A stretch of 26,589 nucleotides of DNA, taken from IMG/VR virus record IMGVR_UViG_3300032240_000604, positions 1 through 26,589 of that record; one strand, written 5' to 3'. This document shows, piece after piece, positions 11,183 through 19,320 of the stretch (position 1 is its first letter; each line of letters begins with the position of its first letter). This stretch comes from a virus. Lineage: Duplodnaviria > Caudoviricetes. The position numbers and the translations under genes were made by a program. The notes beneath the pieces were generated by a model, which saw only the letters and a list, made by a program, of their open reading frames with translations, searched no databases and was not told the DNA's origin.

Positions 11183-11428
11183 TCAGCACTTCCATGCCCG
11201 TAGGCTTTTGTTAATCCTAGAGTTCGGGTCTTTCGCTGTTTTTTCGGACGTCAACTTCTTCTTCATCCCTTCCATGCGAGCACAGAATGAGTCTTTTCTT
11301 GATCCGCCTTCTGGTTGCGGCGGTTTCAAGTTGTGCCCTTCTTTCTTGGCAGATGCTCGCCCCTTGGCGTTCAAGCCGCCGTTGGGGTTCTGGCCTTCCT
11401 TGCGTTGCCATGCTGGTGATTTAGCCAT
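11183..11428 (-). CDS. small basic phage protein (DUF6321-like)
   Basis: MAKSPAWQRKEG...GGLNAKGRAS...SFCARM...SRINKSLRAWKC. The family name is from recall. ATG 11428 is preferred. Confidence 0.75.
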   Translation of the reverse strand: MAKSPAWQRKEGQNPNGGLNAKGRASAKKEGHNLKPPQPEGGSRKDSFCARMEGMKKKLTSEKTAKDPNSRINKSLRAWKC

Positions 11429-11430
11429 GT

Positions 11431-11721
11431 TTATTTCCCGTAAAAAATAGTTACGTTGTAACCAGCAGGAAATGTGACATAACAATCTGTTTCAAACAAA
11501 ACGCCGGGGCCGGGAATAATCACGTTACTAATATTATTTGCATTTCCGGGGACATCAATAATTATTGACGAAGTTCCGCCTGAACCACCATCTTTAAAAG
11601 TAAGCGTTCCTGCTGTTAAAGTACCAAGGCAGTTAATACTTTTTAAGTAAAAAGGGCCTGTAAATAATGTAGTACCAGAGGTACTGGTATGTGCTGACTT
11701 TATGCCTACTGGATCACTCAT
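11431..11721 (-). CDS. hypothetical beta-rich (virion?) protein
   Basis: GGAG SD; Gly/Thr-rich, beta-strand-like 96 aa. Confidence 0.75.
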   Translation of the reverse strand: MSDPVGIKSAHTSTSGTTLFTGPFYLKSINCLGTLTAGTLTFKDGGSGGTSSIIIDVPGNANNISNVIIPGPGVLFETDCYVTFPAGYNVTIFYGK

Positions 11722-11730
11722 GGTTTACTC

Positions 11731-14700
11731 CTAAATAATATTTGCAACAAATTGTTTGTTGGACTTTGAAGTTTCTACTCCATTGACCACAGAACGCTGG
11801 CGCTTACCTGCCGCCGAGACAGCCATAAACAGTTCAGACATTGGCTGAATTTTATACCCATTCTTGCGACGAGATGCTTGTAAGTCTTCCCAATCTTTAC
11901 GGGCATCAGCCATAGCACCTGAATCTCCGTCGCGGCTTGCGTCTACATACGCACCTTTAATCTCTGTCGCTTTGTCGGCATAGAACTTATCAAACTCAGC
12001 CTTAACATTCTGAGTATATTGGCGGTTTGTAATAGCCGTCGTGGGTAACCCAACAGCTTGGAACGCAGCGTCCACTATGCTGATATCTTCGGGTTTCATA
12101 ACCACATCACCGTTACGCATAGTAATACCTTCGTTTGCGTAGCGCACGCCCTTCATCGCATTGCCGATACCGTTGGGCATTAACAACTCCAGACCTTTGT
12201 AGTATTCACCCTTGCCAATCATGCCAGCGCCATCAATGAACTTGGGGGCTAAACCACCAAAGAATGGGCCCATCATTCCAACCATAACTTTTTCGTAGCC
12301 TGAACGGCTACTCAAGTCAACGTCAGTAAATGGCAGAATAGATGCGACGTTACCCATACCGAGTTTGCCACTGAGGTTTACACCCATAGCTGCAGGTACG
12401 CCGTTCAATAGCAAGTCTGCAAGCGTTTTATCACCAATGGCTTGGCGCAATTTGTACTCAAGGTCATCCGGTTCATCTTCGTCGCCGAATAACTTAACCA
12501 ATAGGTTTCCTATTTGCATAACAAACGGAACCCCAAGAGCGCCACCCAATACTGCCATGTGCCCTGTAATGAAAGACAGTGCGCGACGAGCAACCATTTT
12601 CTCCTCAGCTGACGCACCTTTGAATGATGTGTGGATGAGCTTGGCCAGCATGGATAACTGGATAATTTGGAAGCGCTTGAACTGACCAACCACACGACCT
12701 ACGTCAGAAGACAACACACGTGGGGTATTAAATCCGTCGTAAGAACCATGCGAGTTAGAGACAACTTCAGCAGCAAACTTAGTAGCCGCCTCTGTATTGT
12801 TAGCGCCATAGCGTTGGAGGTAGCCACGGTAGGCTGCGATGGCAGCTGTTGCGCGGTTGATTGTCTCAATGCGGTTGTTCACACCTTGGAGTTTGCGCAC
12901 TACCTTACCTAGTGTGCCTTGCTCTCCGGCACGGGCTTTGGCATCTGAATCAATACTAATATCAATCTTGCCCATACCCACTAGGGTTTGGAGCATACCG
13001 CGTACATCCGCCGGAGCCTTGCTAAAGTCAACATGGTCAGTAACTCCAAGACCTTTTACTAATGCACCTATGTCACTGTAAGCAGCTTTGATCGCACGGG
13101 CAGAACGGAAGTACCCAAGTCGCCCAGCCATGTAGGGTAAAGACAACACCCCAGTTTGGAGAATCTGTTGTAGGTAGAACGCAGGGCTAGTGGACAAGAA
13201 CCACAAAGATGTTGCCTGAGTTAATGCACGACTCAACAATGCAGGCTGCTTGTAATCCATGCTGTTGGATTGACGTGTGTACAACTCGTTGTACAGAGGC
13301 ATAGCCTCTTTGTAGTTACGACGGGCTTCTTCCCGCATTTTCTCAAGCGACCCAGTGATTTCGTCGTTGTGCTCCATCGTGGACAAGAAGTGAGCATCAG
13401 CCCGGCCGCTAGTGGCCAAGTTACGCATCATGTTCTCATTAGCACCATAGACATACTTACGGGCAATCTCAGACTTACGCGCACTGTTCTCAGCCGCAGT
13501 CATCAAGTACAAGTCACCGAGCAATTTATCTAGTTCTTCAGAGCCTTCACCCTTTTGGCGGTTGGCAAGGTTACGTGCACGGGAAACAGCAAGGTGTAAG
13601 TCATCCCCAATATAGGAAGCTGCAGCTTCTTTTGGCCCGGCCTCGGTGCCGTCCATATCAAACTTACCAGTAGCAATTAGCTCAGACGCTAGCTGGTCAG
13701 CCTCTCCTTGGGTTTCAGCAAACTGTACAACATAGTGATCAGGACTAGATACGTGATCATCCAACCATGCTTTGGCACGCTTAACGTCGAAGTCATTTAA
13801 CTTAGCGCGCTCTTCCCAGTGCTTGAACTCTTTGGACTTGGCTACAACGATATAGTCCCCATAACGTCCAAGGTATGCGTAAGGCACAGTAAAGTCGATG
13901 TTCTGCAATCTAGTCAGTCTAGACACCATCTCTTTGCGTTCTTTTTGCAGTTGCTCTAGGGCATCTGCATCACCAATAGCAGCACGTTCACGCTCAGCAA
14001 ACTCACGCTCCACTGCTTTGGACACAGCATTCTTCTTTAACTCAAGCGCGGTATACCCGTGATCAAACACATCTTTGATTATTTGCTGGGCATCATCAGG
14101 GAACGCATCGAACCTTGCAGCTAAGTCTTGGTCAGCTTCAAACAGTTCAGTACCAACACGATCTTCGCCGGGGTAGTAGCCCCATTTGCGTTTCATGGTG
14201 GAGTCAAGAATGTACCTATTAACGCTGTCTGCGCCAGTGCCTTGCAAGTTCTTAGGCAGTTTGTCGAAGTTTTCCAAGATACGCTCGATGCGCATCTCAA
14301 ATTCAAGGCGTGTCTTCTGACGGGCATACTGGGCATCAAGATAGTCTTTAGCCGAGCGCATGTACTTGCCAGCCATGTTGACCACATCTTCAGTAATAGC
14401 TGCGCTAAGCAGACCATTTCGGGCCGCAGTAATAATATTTGTAACTACAGACTTGGCAGGTCTAGCTGCCGCTGGAGGTAAGTAGTTGTCTAGCCCTTCG
14501 GAGAAGGACGCGCTTCGACTGGCAAGGCGCTCTGTTTCTCTTCGTCTTTGAATAGGATTGATACGGGCTTGACCGCCCGCGCTGGTGTTACGATTTCTGA
14601 ACGCGAGGGTTCTTTGCGCAGAAGTTGCTGCTGTTTGGATTTGAAGCGATTTTGTAGACTGGACATGTTTAATTACCTCTGCCATGAATGCGGCTGTTTG

Positions 14701-17700
14701 GGGGGCTACCTTTTCAAGTTTAGCTCGTCCCTTTGGATTTACATAGACACTAAATAACTGGGCAAACAATTCACCTTCAACCACTACATGGTTATCTATC
14801 TCTTTAAACTTTGAAGTGTTAAATGGATACTCAAGGTAGTCATTCCATCCAGCGTTTGTGTTGTATAGGTTGTACATCTCACGGGCAACTACACCCACTG
14901 GAGTAATCTTACCGTCCTTAACCACAACACTCATCTCAGGTTGGCCAGAGTAAATACCGCCATGAGGTGCCATATCTACAGCATGACCGACCTCATGGGT
15001 AACAGTTTCTATTGCGTGATCTGACGATGTCAATTTGGCTTGGTTTAGTACAACTTTGTACCGACCGCCCTGAGATACGATTTCGCCGTTGATAGCATCT
15101 TCAGCAGGGTCATTGATGGTTTCCCAGTCAGACACATAATCCATTGCATGGCCAATCCCCATGTCTTCTAGTTGTTTATTGGCGGCTTCAACACCGTCAA
15201 AATCAGCAGCTAAATCTTCTACAGCATAGAAAGACTTTGACTTACTGGCTAAACGCTCTTCCTCTTTGGCCACAACAGAACGAGTCTCAGCTTTACCTGT
15301 AACACTACCTTCGGTTGTCTCAATCGTTTGAGTCATTGCAGGGAATAGCTGAGCAATACCTTCATTGTTCTCCGGCATAACAAACATCAATGAACCATTA
15401 AGTTCATTTTTAGCGGGGATAAGGGTATCCACCATATTTTTATTGCTGACGTTAATACAACCCCAACTAATGCGGTTATCTGTTGGCGTCGGAGTAGCTA
15501 ATCGTTCTGGTCGTTTTTCAGAAGCCTCGCCTGTATATACAGCGTGTATAGCAATAATGCCATCGACTTGTCGGGTTTCAGCAAGGTCGTACCGGAAACC
15601 GCCATAGTATTCTGGGTCAGCCGTAAACTTTAAAGTAAATTTTCCAGCGGGGGTAATCTTTTTACCGCCTTGTAACGTATCACCTACATCACCGCCCAAC
15701 AAAGACGGGGCTTGCAAAATAGGGTTTCCATCTGCATGGAATACATGTAGCTGAGCATTGACTTTGTCAACAATCATGAAAGCTTTGTTGGCTTGCTTAG
15801 CAATGGGTGCTACGGCGGAGTAAGTAACTTGTGCAGCCTCAGACATCTTGGCTTTAGCAACATCCGGCACCGCAGCCCTGACTTCAGTAGTTTGTGAAAC
15901 TACACGAGGTAAGTTGAACTGGAAATTTACTTTGGCTAACGTAGGGTTAACCACTATGGCAGCAGCTAGTACACCTTGAGCCACCACTCGAATAATGTCA
16001 CGAATAGCAGCAGAAACTGCTTCAGCACCTTTGCTGGCGTAAGCAACTACATCTTCGCCTAGTTTGCTAAAGAAATCATCAGTGCCACGCTTGGCACCAT
16101 AGTGTTGTTCTAATCGAGTAGCCTGACCTTCGGTAAGTTTTTCTACCTCAGGTGCTAGCGTCTTAGCATCTCCAGTAATGCTTGGTGTTTCAGTGGTCCC
16201 CGCTTTGACAGTAGTCGTAAGCACCCGATTGGCAGCCGCAAGATTAGCCACGCCACGAGACGCGACATCATCCCATCTAATTTTTTCATCTTTGGTTAGT
16301 CCTTCATATGGAGGCATACCGGGGAACTGATCAGCCAAAGCCATCCACTGTTCTTCAGGTGTTTTTACTTCTTGCTTGACTTCTTCGACTGGCTTGGCTT
16401 CGACTTTGACCCTACGTGCTCCGGCAAGCTTTTTGGGTTTGGCGTTAGCTTTGCCCACTTCTTCGCCACTTCCGGCTGGTTGGCGAACATTTCCCTCATC
16501 TGTGCTTTCGACTTGAACGGCATTTTCAGTTTCCTTTGGTGCTTGTTTACCAGCTGTTGCGCGGACGCGAGCTTTTTCTTTCTTCTCAGCGTCAGCAATT
16601 TTTGCAGTTAGTTCTGCTACTTGCTTTTCTAAATCTTCTACACGCCCGTCATTGGCTTCGTTGGCAGCCTCCAGCTCATTGGACAAGTCCAAGTATTGCT
16701 GCATCAAGGCTTCCATCTTATTGCCTTCTTCGGCCAAATCAGATACGTTGGTCCGGTCTATTTTTCCGGTACCCTTACCTTGGTTATCGACACGCTCTTT
16801 AACATTCTGGATTTCCATGCCAGTGTTGATAAGGTCGCCCTCATCTACTGTTGTACCCAGAGCCCCATTAGTTGCATTTTCTGCATAGGCTTCACGAATA
16901 GTCTCAAGCCCATCCAATGCTTCCAATAAACTGACGTTCATTGTTTCGGCTTGGTAGTTAACCGCTTCTAAAAACTTGTCGAGGTTCTTTGTAATAAAAC
17001 GAGGATGCGTTTCACCCTTGTCTGTAATAGCATCAGACGCTAGTTCTTTGACGTACTGTTCAGTTACGCCGTACTCTTTAGCCAGTTCACCATAGTTACC
17101 ACGATTACCCTCTTCGGTAAGATACAGTAGAAGTTCAACTTTGCGATCTGACTTATAGATCATCCGCAACGCATTGCGTATTAGATTGGGGACCTCTTGG
17201 ACCCGTTGCTCTTCGTCTGACTGAGCTTGTAACTCTGAAGGAATTGCCCCAGTATATTCATTAGCTTGTCGTTCTGTGGCGTTTTGGGCGGTACTTGAAA
17301 CAGCTGCTTGCTGTTGACCAGTGGTTCCTTGGGTGGTTGCATTTTGTGCTCCGCTTACTTGCGCGTTCTGCGTGGGCTGACCAACATCATTGGCAACGGC
17401 GCTGCCATTGGCTCCTGCCCGTACTCCTTCTGCTGATAACTGTCCAGTTTGGAGACCAAGCGATCCCTCTCCGAGACCTGCTGTTCCGATGGGTTGAACT
17501 TGAGCGGGTCGTACAGGCCCATTTCCTCCATTGCTTGTTTCTCTTGCTCCGCCTTGGACTGGTACTTTTCGAACCCCGGCGTTGTTTTGCAGTTGTAGTT
17601 TTCCATTTTTAGCTCCTTTAGCTACTTCGGATTGTTGGCTGGCTATATAGCCAGAAGTATCCTCACCCGTTAAGGCTTGGTGAATTGCGTTAATCTGCTC

Positions 17701-19320
17701 AAGTTCATTCTTCTTGGCAGTTTTAGATTGCTCATCAAGGATTGCTGCGGCTTCTTCCACCGATTGCACGTGCGCAATTTGAAATTTGTTAGCCGTTTTA
17801 GCTACCGCTTCAAAACCCTTTTGAACAGATGCTTGTGGATTATTAGCATTAAAAGTAAAGCTGACAAGTTTATTTCCTGTTTCAGAGTTGGCTTGAATAA
17901 TAGCTTTAGTAATGTCGCGCTGGTGTGGCTCCATCGCTTTGTCTAGAGGAACAACCGCATCAGCTACAGCATTAACACTTGGGCCAAAAAGTGGCTTACC
18001 TAAGAACTGCCCTTGCTTTGCTGCAGGATCAGTAGTAATACCAAAATCTTGCATGGCTTGTTCGCGGGCTGCTTGTTGTGCTTGTGCTTGCTGAATCTTT
18101 TGAGACTCAGCCTGTGCTTGTTGCTGAGCAACTGCAATATCTGTTGACCCACCAGTAACTGCCGGAGGTAATTCACCACCAATAAGTTTAGAGCGCCCAG
18201 CCAAGGGATCAGCACCACGGCCAGTTAGTCCAGCCATAATCCCAGCAGACGGCGCAGGCGGCAATGGCGCAGGTGGAGTGAACTGTTGTGTTGTTAATGG
18301 TGGTTTAGATTGGTCATCACTAGCAATAGCCTGAGACACATCGTTTCCAGAACGACGCCATCCGCCAAGGGCTCCGCCAGCAACACCGCCTAGCGTAGCG
18401 CCGCCAATGAAAGATTCTTTAAAACGTTCTTGGGCAGCATCACTAAAAAATTGCTCGTTTTTATCAACCGACATGCGGCCAATTTGATTAAGCATTTCTT
18501 GGCCAGTTTCAGACGCGCCTTCTTTTAAACCAACGCCAGTGGCAGTAGCTGCAGTACGAGCAGCAGCACCTTTGAGCCCAGTTCCTTTATCAAGAAGGTT
18601 GACTGAATTTTTAAATAAGTTACCGCGCATCAATGCGCTTTCCACACCAACTGCATTTAAGGCAGCGTATGGGACGGCTAGGGCTGCGGCTACGCCACCA
18701 CGAGTTTCGCCAGATTGTTCTCTTTGGTTACTTAGTACATCACCAACAGCCGATGGATACGAAGCAGCAACACCGCCAACCTCAGAACCAATATTAAGAG
18801 CGCGTTTGGCTTTGGCAACAGCCGCAGTATCACCAGCAAGTTCCGCAGCAGAAAGGGCTGCACGAGTTCCCGTCATAGCACCACGGGCGGCAAGTCCGCC
18901 AACTAAAGCTTCTGCGGCATAAGGTACAGATTGAATAGCCAGATTCTTGGCGTAACTACCAAAGTCACCAACCCCGTGGACATTCTTCCACTCATCGACA
19001 GCACCAAGCTCACGAGCGCGTTCCGCAGCAATATCTGCCTGCAGTTCGTTTTCTTGTCTATTACCCCGTAGGTATTTACTGACACCAGTAAGGCCAACAC
19101 CCTTGGCTACTTCCTCTCCTACACCGTAAAGTCCTGCTTGGTAGCGGTCAATAGACGACGAGAATTGTTGTGAAGTCAGTCCGCCCTTTGGGACCTTATA
19201 CCCAACCTCAGACGAAATTTCTGCTGGGTCAATTCCAAAGTCTTTGGAGGCTCTGCGAATTAAATCAGCGTCTGACTCTGCATCTGGAAATAACGCACGT
19301 AGTTGATCTAGTGTGGCCAT
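11731..19320 (-). CDS. giant internal virion/ejection polyvalent protein (HTH-like, L,D-transpeptidase-like, zincin, PLxRFG-like regions)
   Basis: 2529-aa ORF, third in the internal-virion cluster. Motifs: AIHAV...SWGCINV; THEVGH...ELFA; YAYLGRYGDY; Gly/Ala-rich hydrophobic N- and C-terminal segments. Confidence 0.85.
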   Translation of the reverse strand: MATLDQLRALFPDAESDADLIRRASKDFGIDPAEISSEVGYKVPKGGLTSQQFSSSIDRYQAGLYGVGEEVAKGVGLTGVSKYLRGNRQENELQADIAAERARELGAVDEWKNVHGVGDFGSYAKNLAIQSVPYAAEALVGGLAARGAMTGTRAALSAAELAGDTAAVAKAKRALNIGSEVGGVAASYPSAVGDVLSNQREQSGETRGGVAAALAVPYAALNAVGVESALMRGNLFKNSVNLLDKGTGLKGAAARTAATATGVGLKEGASETGQEMLNQIGRMSVDKNEQFFSDAAQERFKESFIGGATLGGVAGGALGGWRRSGNDVSQAIASDDQSKPPLTTQQFTPPAPLPPAPSAGIMAGLTGRGADPLAGRSKLIGGELPPAVTGGSTDIAVAQQQAQAESQKIQQAQAQQAAREQAMQDFGITTDPAAKQGQFLGKPLFGPSVNAVADAVVPLDKAMEPHQRDITKAIIQANSETGNKLVSFTFNANNPQASVQKGFEAVAKTANKFQIAHVQSVEEAAAILDEQSKTAKKNELEQINAIHQALTGEDTSGYIASQQSEVAKGAKNGKLQLQNNAGVRKVPVQGGARETSNGGNGPVRPAQVQPIGTAGLGEGSLGLQTGQLSAEGVRAGANGSAVANDVGQPTQNAQVSGAQNATTQGTTGQQQAAVSSTAQNATERQANEYTGAIPSELQAQSDEEQRVQEVPNLIRNALRMIYKSDRKVELLLYLTEEGNRGNYGELAKEYGVTEQYVKELASDAITDKGETHPRFITKNLDKFLEAVNYQAETMNVSLLEALDGLETIREAYAENATNGALGTTVDEGDLINTGMEIQNVKERVDNQGKGTGKIDRTNVSDLAEEGNKMEALMQQYLDLSNELEAANEANDGRVEDLEKQVAELTAKIADAEKKEKARVRATAGKQAPKETENAVQVESTDEGNVRQPAGSGEEVGKANAKPKKLAGARRVKVEAKPVEEVKQEVKTPEEQWMALADQFPGMPPYEGLTKDEKIRWDDVASRGVANLAAANRVLTTTVKAGTTETPSITGDAKTLAPEVEKLTEGQATRLEQHYGAKRGTDDFFSKLGEDVVAYASKGAEAVSAAIRDIIRVVAQGVLAAAIVVNPTLAKVNFQFNLPRVVSQTTEVRAAVPDVAKAKMSEAAQVTYSAVAPIAKQANKAFMIVDKVNAQLHVFHADGNPILQAPSLLGGDVGDTLQGGKKITPAGKFTLKFTADPEYYGGFRYDLAETRQVDGIIAIHAVYTGEASEKRPERLATPTPTDNRISWGCINVSNKNMVDTLIPAKNELNGSLMFVMPENNEGIAQLFPAMTQTIETTEGSVTGKAETRSVVAKEEERLASKSKSFYAVEDLAADFDGVEAANKQLEDMGIGHAMDYVSDWETINDPAEDAINGEIVSQGGRYKVVLNQAKLTSSDHAIETVTHEVGHAVDMAPHGGIYSGQPEMSVVVKDGKITPVGVVAREMYNLYNTNAGWNDYLEYPFNTSKFKEIDNHVVVEGELFAQLFSVYVNPKGRAKLEKVAPQTAAFMAEVIKHVQSTKSLQIQTAATSAQRTLAFRNRNTSAGGQARINPIQRRRETERLASRSASFSEGLDNYLPPAAARPAKSVVTNIITAARNGLLSAAITEDVVNMAGKYMRSAKDYLDAQYARQKTRLEFEMRIERILENFDKLPKNLQGTGADSVNRYILDSTMKRKWGYYPGEDRVGTELFEADQDLAARFDAFPDDAQQIIKDVFDHGYTALELKKNAVSKAVEREFAERERAAIGDADALEQLQKERKEMVSRLTRLQNIDFTVPYAYLGRYGDYIVVAKSKEFKHWEERAKLNDFDVKRAKAWLDDHVSSPDHYVVQFAETQGEADQLASELIATGKFDMDGTEAGPKEAAASYIGDDLHLAVSRARNLANRQKGEGSEELDKLLGDLYLMTAAENSARKSEIARKYVYGANENMMRNLATSGRADAHFLSTMEHNDEITGSLEKMREEARRNYKEAMPLYNELYTRQSNSMDYKQPALLSRALTQATSLWFLSTSPAFYLQQILQTGVLSLPYMAGRLGYFRSARAIKAAYSDIGALVKGLGVTDHVDFSKAPADVRGMLQTLVGMGKIDISIDSDAKARAGEQGTLGKVVRKLQGVNNRIETINRATAAIAAYRGYLQRYGANNTEAATKFAAEVVSNSHGSYDGFNTPRVLSSDVGRVVGQFKRFQIIQLSMLAKLIHTSFKGASAEEKMVARRALSFITGHMAVLGGALGVPFVMQIGNLLVKLFGDEDEPDDLEYKLRQAIGDKTLADLLLNGVPAAMGVNLSGKLGMGNVASILPFTDVDLSSRSGYEKVMVGMMGPFFGGLAPKFIDGAGMIGKGEYYKGLELLMPNGIGNAMKGVRYANEGITMRNGDVVMKPEDISIVDAAFQAVGLPTTAITNRQYTQNVKAEFDKFYADKATEIKGAYVDASRDGDSGAMADARKDWEDLQASRRKNGYKIQPMSELFMAVSAAGKRQRSVVNGVETSKSNKQFVANII
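14490..14666 (-). CDS. nested +1-frame ORF D (58 aa)
   Basis: GAGGT-8 nt-ATG; MSSLQNRFKSKQQQLLRKEPSR...RPSPKG*. Confidence 0.4.
   Translation of the reverse strand: MSSLQNRFKSKQQQLLRKEPSRSEIVTPARAVKPVSILFKDEEKQSALPVEARPSPKG
16365..16523 (-). CDS. nested +1-frame ORF C (52 aa, MPFKS-type small basic phage protein)
   Basis: AAGGA-8 nt-ATG; MPFKSKAQMREMFANQPEVAKKWAKLTPNPKSLPEHV... Confidence 0.65.
   Translation of the reverse strand: MPFKSKAQMREMFANQPEVAKKWAKLTPNPKSLPEHVGSKSKPSQSKKSSKK
17181..17342 (-). CDS. nested +1-frame ORF B (53 aa)
   Basis: GGAG-6 nt-ATG, 12 nt after the stop of ORF A; MQPPKEPLVNSKQLF...SPI*. Confidence 0.45.
   Translation of the reverse strand: MQPPKEPLVNSKQLFQVPPKTPQNDKLMNILGQFLQSYKLSQTKSNGSKRSPI
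17355..17606 (-). CDS. nested +1-frame ORF A (83 aa)
   Basis: AAGGAG-6 nt-ATG; MENYNCKTTPGFEKYQSKAEQEKQAMEEMGLYDPLKF... Confidence 0.55.
   Translation of the reverse strand: MENYNCKTTPGFEKYQSKAEQEKQAMEEMGLYDPLKFNPSEQQVSERDRLVSKLDSYQQKEYGQEPMAAPLPMMLVSPRRTRK

Follow-up and report, generated by a model that had tools for sequence, protein, structure and literature searches.

Within the largest gene of a phage genome fragment, and out of frame with it, lies a short open reading frame, ORF C, which encodes a member of a family that we call MPFKS after its first residues. At ORF C the nested +1 frame is the selected frame, and taken together our data argue that ORF C is a real, separately initiated gene with a nested architecture, a reading to which we give a probability of about 0.88 apart from the matter of its function. 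The window, by which we mean the whole stretch of DNA analysed (26,589 nucleotides), is a 26.6-kb virus record with an estimated completeness of 46%, in which replication genes occupy the plus strand and virion and lysis genes the minus strand. ORF C is read in +1 relative to the 2529-codon ORF that encloses it, hereafter the host gene, and overlies host residues 933-984 (Table 1).

Table 1. Positions in the window of the giant host gene, ORF C and the other nested reading frames (SD, Shine-Dalgarno).
Feature	Position	Strand	Remarks
Giant host gene, 2529-aa protein	11731-19320	-	Largest gene of the window
ORF A, second nested +1 gene, 83 aa	17355-17606	-	AAGGAG; well supported
ORF B, probable nested +1 gene, 53 aa	17181-17342	-	SD -5.8; starts 10 nt after the ORF A stop; weaker
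AAGGA, SD-like, of ORF C	16532-16536	-	8 nt 5' of the ATG; duplex energy -4.9 kcal/mol
ORF C, nested gene of the MPFKS family, 52-aa basic protein	16365-16523	-	Translation, homologues, selection
ORF C conserved core, codons 1-37	16413-16523	-	Lys/Ser tail beyond it variable; stop TAA
ORF D, possible nested +1 gene, 44 aa	16155-16289	-	Weak
ORF E, possible nested +1 gene, 58 aa	14490-14666	-	SD -7.1; weak

Residues 1936-2494 of the giant host protein match phrog_10089, 'DarB-like antirestriction' (E 3e-53), together with three unknown giant families, and the genes that precede it match internal-virion and virion-structural families. Based on the PHROG 10089 match and on this position, the giant protein is probably an internal, ejected virion protein. 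Two further matches were weak and fell below the Pfam cut-off, one YkuD-like (residues 1182-1297, about 15777-15430, minus strand) and one zincin-like with HEVGH at residue 1442 (residues 1415-1547, about 15078-14680, minus strand). Parts of 15266-16191 are exchanged for other sequence in strains related to the window, which suggests a swappable domain in the giant gene. The host linker under ORF C is hydrophilic, with 17% hydrophobic and zero aromatic residues. Additionally, a gene for a small basic DUF6321 protein lies two genes after the giant gene (11183-11485, minus strand), its true start probably being at an internal ATG. A promoter and terminator scan of the window gave 6 promoter-like sites against 9.4 expected and 13 terminator-like sites against 8.8 expected, none of them tied to ORF C.

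Translation of ORF C confirmed the very basic 52-residue nested peptide of the preliminary description (13 K/R against 3 D/E; pI 10.5), and the host-frame text was as quoted there. The range that had been assigned to it, 16365..16536, holds as far as its coding part is concerned, its remainder being upstream sequence with the AAGGA. The predicted structure consists of two helices (6-15 and 17-26; mean pLDDT 82) and a tail modelled with low confidence (about 60). The host gene contains 23 stop-free +1 stretches of at least 35 codons, so the openness of ORF C alone proves little. Its homology and its substitution pattern, in turn, are far beyond chance.

Searches with the ORF C peptide returned 36 homologous proteins among 51 candidates, and 431 matches among 600 stretches of viral contigs. 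A profile built from 54 sequences of the family recovered 4713 clusters at 50% identity; ORF C scores 83 bits on it and carries the core features of the family (M-P-F-K-S-x-A-Q ... A20 ... L33-P34 and a basic tail), and the family consensus of the alignment agrees with the MPFKS pattern of the preliminary description. ORF C weakly matches PHROG 1375, a family without function (E 4e-4), which is matched by 46 of the 54 family members with a best E of 2e-8; the library behind it is made of called genes. No Pfam match was found for ORF C or for the family. No solved structural relative was detected either by sequence, where two chance matches appeared (E 0.64), or by Foldseek, a VIA-align search gave no structural relative at Z 2 or more, and among viral predicted structures only uncharacterised proteins matched, none at E 0.001 or better. 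By features, the nearest named Atlas clusters are of DUF3008 (PF11450), with scores of 0.85 (37% of members carry it) and 0.89 (18%), and scores below 0.9 are leads only; none of the 54 family members matched the DUF3008 Pfam model at E up to 1, and neither did ORF C.

ORF C had been taken for a relative of free-standing phage proteins, and many free-standing homologues were indeed found. In the nesting census, 356 loci gave 336 profile matches and 240 distinct cores, of which 140 had a stop in the would-be host frame, 30 had a short open span, four were truncated and 66, including the window, lay in long frames (at least 390 codons); the proportions reflect the patterns searched and should not be taken as population frequencies. 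Across the 52 colinear free-standing copies, stops averaged 3.4 per 37 codons of the would-be host frame. One of the 66, L130, was dropped as a nested copy, leaving 65, because the long frame there belongs to a terminase gene whose start probably lies beyond the small gene; it was excluded from the start-signal and nested-ORF counts and kept in the 44-sequence comparison described below, where it is in 1 of 22 pairs. A separate metagenome sample, partly overlapping the same phages, gave 47 cores with stops, 15 in long frames, 13 with short spans and one truncated among 76 distinct ones. Nested copies are all short (41-98 aa).

Several further features of the family emerged from these searches. 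The MPFKS unit also leads diverse longer proteins of up to 1225 aa (P0038-P0186; L074, L284, L286, L298), and DUF5661 is also present in four of 82 scanned longer proteins that bear it. A subfamily with a longer loop was found in contigs of soil bacterial genomes (L160, L167, L169, L172, L174, L176, L178, L179, L181, L183), with ordinary bacterial genes around nine of the ten genome loci and an integrase nearby only in L176. Among phages, 68 Flavobacterium phage records were matched by the family, with nesting checked in one. In both GenBank phage records examined (Elemovirus elemoA_7-9A, L081:12001; and L082:10001) the nested copies are unannotated; the former is a cultured phage.

To avoid choosing loci by the ORF C peptide, 52 loci were picked by the C-terminal domain of the host protein. 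ORF C was present in the +1 frame of 43 of them (34 distinct cores), with the host frame open in all 43. Two of the remaining loci were cut too short to judge and seven with a complete N-terminus lack ORF C; in all five of these records that were checked, one of them 99% complete, no free copy was found elsewhere, indicating that ORF C is not essential in all relatives. Selection was then evaluated in 14 close pairs, with the window used twice and 12 pairs consisting only of the window and loci chosen by host domain. Host-silent differences were 0.047 per site in the ORF C core; elsewhere in the host they were 0.53 in the N-terminal region, 0.47 and 0.49 in the 60 codons flanking the core on each side and 0.37 over the C-terminal domain. 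In the core, those silent for ORF C alone amounted to 0.346 per site, which gives a ratio of ORF C-silent to host-silent differences of 7.4; this ratio is 1.3 for the tail and 0.24-0.59 for other host regions. Furthermore, in a comparison of 44 colinear nested copies, 936 of the 946 pairs showed higher conservation of the small protein than of the host text; the pairs are not independent and include those of L130. Indels or divergence left 22 of the 66 nested and 88 of the 140 free copies out of this colinear comparison. Entropy at ORF C codon positions 1, 2 and 3 was 0.67, 0.51 and 1.03, respectively. Three control +1 ORFs of the host gene showed the opposite pattern and contained stops, and a fourth control had no matches.

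One could also see in ORF C no more than the shadow cast by a conserved motif of the host protein, or else a dead relic; in favour of this, the host-frame text is recognisable across nested copies (mean identity 0.45), and +1 frames above hydrophilic linkers are often open in any case. This explanation is nevertheless barely credible, because the host-silent sites are the most constrained class of all, the three controls from the same gene reverse the pattern, and the family occurs without any host frame. The conservation is better explained by the +1 frame, in which homologues abound, as the preliminary description had suggested. Its additional proposal that the host text is a by-product is right as to sequence; that text is, however, not wholly unconstrained. 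Codon pairs that create a host stop were found in 0 of 880 cases in nested copies and in 437 of 2035 in non-nested ones, a difference that follows in part from the definition of nesting. For T at the remaining third positions, the counts were 58 of 1330 and 615 of 3779, respectively. The avoided third-position T would encode host aromatic, Leu, Cys or Ser codons, so that the avoidance of stops and of T together indicates a constraint on the host frame to remain both open and hydrophilic.

Nested copies start with ATG (63/65) or GTG (2/65), and the host residue above the start varies (N, D, S, Y, H). Judging from the sequences, the start signals follow the host group, being Shine-Dalgarno in one and A-rich in another. 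A Shine-Dalgarno site of -4 kcal/mol or lower precedes 44 of 44 nested copies in the host group of the window, compared with 11.7% of 3176 other +1 ATGs. In the 17 Bacteroidota-type nested copies, a group defined by Flavobacterium phage records, record titles and BLAST links with two members added by hand, only one has such a site and all 17 have A at -13 and -12, a combination seen at 18% of the other +1 ATGs (n = 1180) and, among 94 presumed gene starts, at 35%, although kinship and Lys/Glu-rich host codons may inflate this A-rich signal. The available text of PMC6847099 reports A at -13/-12 as an initiation signal for Flavobacterium johnsoniae. The conservation of both start codon and ribosome site also speaks against a programmed frameshift into or out of ORF C, which would need no start of its own and would yield a shortened host protein with the basic domain at its end or a C-terminal half led by the small domain. 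Fusions of the MPFKS domain to larger proteins do occur, and a heptamer, CCCAAAA, is present at codon 29 in the window. Slippery heptamers, however, are confined to 14 of the 65 nested copies, where their codon positions are scattered, so that none is conserved, and in most copies the +1 frame is open just a few codons upstream, all of which makes a frameshift very unlikely.

The giant gene contains other candidates for nested +1 genes (Table 1). ORF A has homologues led by a Shine-Dalgarno site in 31 of 44 related hosts, with an identity of 0.58 in +1 against 0.43 in the host frame and zero stops in 2666 aligned codons, a substitution pattern like that of ORF C; it is nested in all eight loci found to carry it, and no PHROG match was found for it. 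At the position of ORF B, a Shine-Dalgarno-led ORF family is present in 16 hosts, with only three direct BLAST matches. The ORF D family is found in eight hosts, 72 codons after ORF C (seven matches; +1 identity 0.54 against 0.48 for the host), and ORF D resembles a truncated version of a 57-aa ORF present in relatives. The ORF E family comprises seven hosts including the window (four matches; 0.49 against 0.42). Relatives that lack ORF C can carry other frames of this kind: L220 (host codon 537) and L228 (host codon 498) have another Shine-Dalgarno-led +1 ORF of about 60 aa, alike in both, and L225 has a relative of ORF A. The presence of ORF A or other Shine-Dalgarno-led ORFs in hosts without ORF C indicates that nested content varies like a cassette.

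Masking the overlap separates the hosts into groups that BLAST does not link: 44 related to that of the window, nine Bacteroidota-type large proteins, six of about 400 aa, and singletons. The giant hosts of separate groups could be very distant homologues, but the hosts of about 400 aa are of another kind. These shorter hosts (L168:5871-7049, L171:5823-7112, L175, L177, L180, L184) have the nesting in their acidic N-terminus; in the two loci read they lie after terminase-like and portal-sized genes and before a capsid-like gene, which is the scaffold position, an assignment made by position and reading, the PHROG search having given no match. One peptide subtype is common to giant and scaffold-position hosts. 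In a tree of 76 rows, nested copies as one clade were rejected (p-AU 0.00014), as were the copies of the window's host group (p-AU 0.0012), and nested and free labels changed 18 times against a shuffled mean of 23; with some 40 alignment columns and a simple model behind it, this tree counts as supporting evidence, not as decisive. According to the accessible part of PMC8227390, overprinting predicts that the inner frame is narrower in distribution. A de novo origin, with a narrower inner frame lacking free homologues, does not fit the 140 of 240 cores with host-frame stops or the 4713 clusters, and the simplest reading of the sequences is that different hosts would have repeatedly captured an existing gene, rather than that it was born by overprinting. 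Free copies also lie 4 and 13 nt past the stop of giant genes of about 2000 aa (L300:6001 and L303), which may possibly represent the state before capture.

The best explanation of these data is that an old, widespread small-protein gene came to sit within the linker of a giant virion gene. Ribosomes would initiate internally at the ORF C site on the late structural mRNA, giving a product of 52 aa whose core has two helices and whose tail is basic; for ribosomes coming from the start of the giant gene, these bases, taken one frame back, would encode a hydrophilic spacer. From its sequence we infer that ORF C is translated in this phage. Its product would be made with the same timing as the virion proteins, bind nucleic acid and enter the particle. 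We propose only tentatively, at somewhat less than even odds, that it is a small basic head-associated nucleic-acid-binding protein going into the particle. In 26 of 71 non-redundant free-standing loci the nearest long neighbour, defined as the closest ORF of at least 120 aa on the same strand and no more than 1.5 kb away, is a portal or terminase gene. A neighbour could be named in 37 of these loci, and in 29 of them there is a head or packaging gene; both counts were made without a control set.

Homologues in mycobacteriophages give further information on this point. Patience gp10, Barnyard gp9, Papyrus gp8 and cluster B gp73-78 share with ORF C the F-x-S-K-x-Q core, the two-helix spacing and the LP motif, Barnyard gp9 being identical to ORF C at 16 of 31 positions and matched by 486 phage records; unlike ORF C, they are free-standing and have a basic N-terminal extension that replaces the MP start. 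Barnyard 9, Papyrus 8 and Patience 10 are located at or just after the portal gene, and Patience gp10, a distant member of the family (hhalign probability 82%) whose expression is known from mass spectrometry, is listed as a virion protein in the available text of PMC4324244. An identification of the family with the Patience capsid accessory protein gp4 was considered and dropped, the match being gene 10 and the Barnyard accessory gene being 3, not 9. Alternatively, the product of the same nested gene could be a basic protein of the cytoplasm that, instead of joining the particle, acts during infection on the nucleic acid or ribosomes of the host. In favour of this role, the cluster B homologue sits in the non-structural right arm, the stringent spectra of Patience gp10 are more numerous in cells (early 4, late 2) than in particles (1; PMC4324244 Table S1), and the chromosomal subfamily has non-phage surroundings. 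The family also occurs in very different phage types, with look-alike structures in jumbo Pseudomonas phages, which speaks against one capsid partner. We consider a cytoplasmic role rather unlikely in view of the head and packaging neighbours of the free-standing copies and of the virion or scaffold-position genes occupied by the nested ones; besides, a Lys/Arg-rich peptide would be expected to yield few tryptic spectra.

The longer members of the family raise yet another option, namely that the core is a head-loading tag analogous to the T4 capsid targeting sequence, empty or a decoy when alone and carrying cargo into the prohead when N-terminal in larger proteins. Among the 149 best new representatives, 73 exceed 100 aa, the domain begins within the first 10 residues in 132 of 145 placeable cases, and the attached parts are diverse and mostly unannotated. 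After the domain, K-x-A is found in 48 of 73 compared with 19% elsewhere, an excess inflated by the Lys-rich tail, and x-x-E-S in 10 of 73 compared with 1.3%, motifs that may be prohead-protease-like. The T4 internal proteins and their capsid targeting sequence resemble the family in being small, basic and head-linked, with an N-terminal unit on diverse cargoes, as far as described in the accessible text of PMC9026906. The likeness is for now one of analogy rather than of demonstrated kinship in sequence or structure, and the T4 tag is a cleaved propeptide of 10-19 residues (PMC9026906, same portion), much shorter than the MPFKS core and not a folded unit of 37 residues. In addition, a role as tag only would leave the short nested copies without cargo, and we regard this option as quite improbable. 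Our preferred, still tentative, reading stays with a head-associated protein that would bind nucleic acid.

Embedded phage genes are already known. In lambda, Rz1 lies within Rz. The phiX174 gene E lies within D, as described in the accessible part of PMC8227390, and the available text of PMC4324244 mentions unexplained out-of-frame ORFs or products in Patience gene 20 and its polymerase gene. In all these cases, as in ORF C, the inner gene is on the same strand and has its own start. ORF C nevertheless differs from usual overprinting, where the younger and more narrowly spread frame is the inner one, in that the inner gene is the widespread and conserved one and the outer text a derived spacer, and in that the family uses several unrelated outer genes and one outer gene holds several inner ones. 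In the open-access literature searched, neither the MPFKS family nor its nesting was described; a description could exist in subscription papers, in bioRxiv supplements or in supplementary tables outside that search.

Lastly, these results have consequences for how giant phage genes are understood. ORF C is a real nested gene that reverses the usual order of overprinting, a stretch of the giant virion protein being the by-product. On this view, what recurs as a 'motif' in many giant phage proteins does not belong to the host protein at all, and several small genes per genome escape gene callers. The MPFKS family is very large and has no assigned function. In a broader and doubtful extension, giant-protein linkers and acidic scaffold-position N-termini might serve as +1 landing sites for whole small genes, up to five per host, with exchange between nested and free pools, and MPFKS might be a very widespread head-loading or genome-binding module of tailed phages that is missed when nested. 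Testable systems exist in a cultured phage group with the nested form and in tractable mycobacteriophages with free forms.
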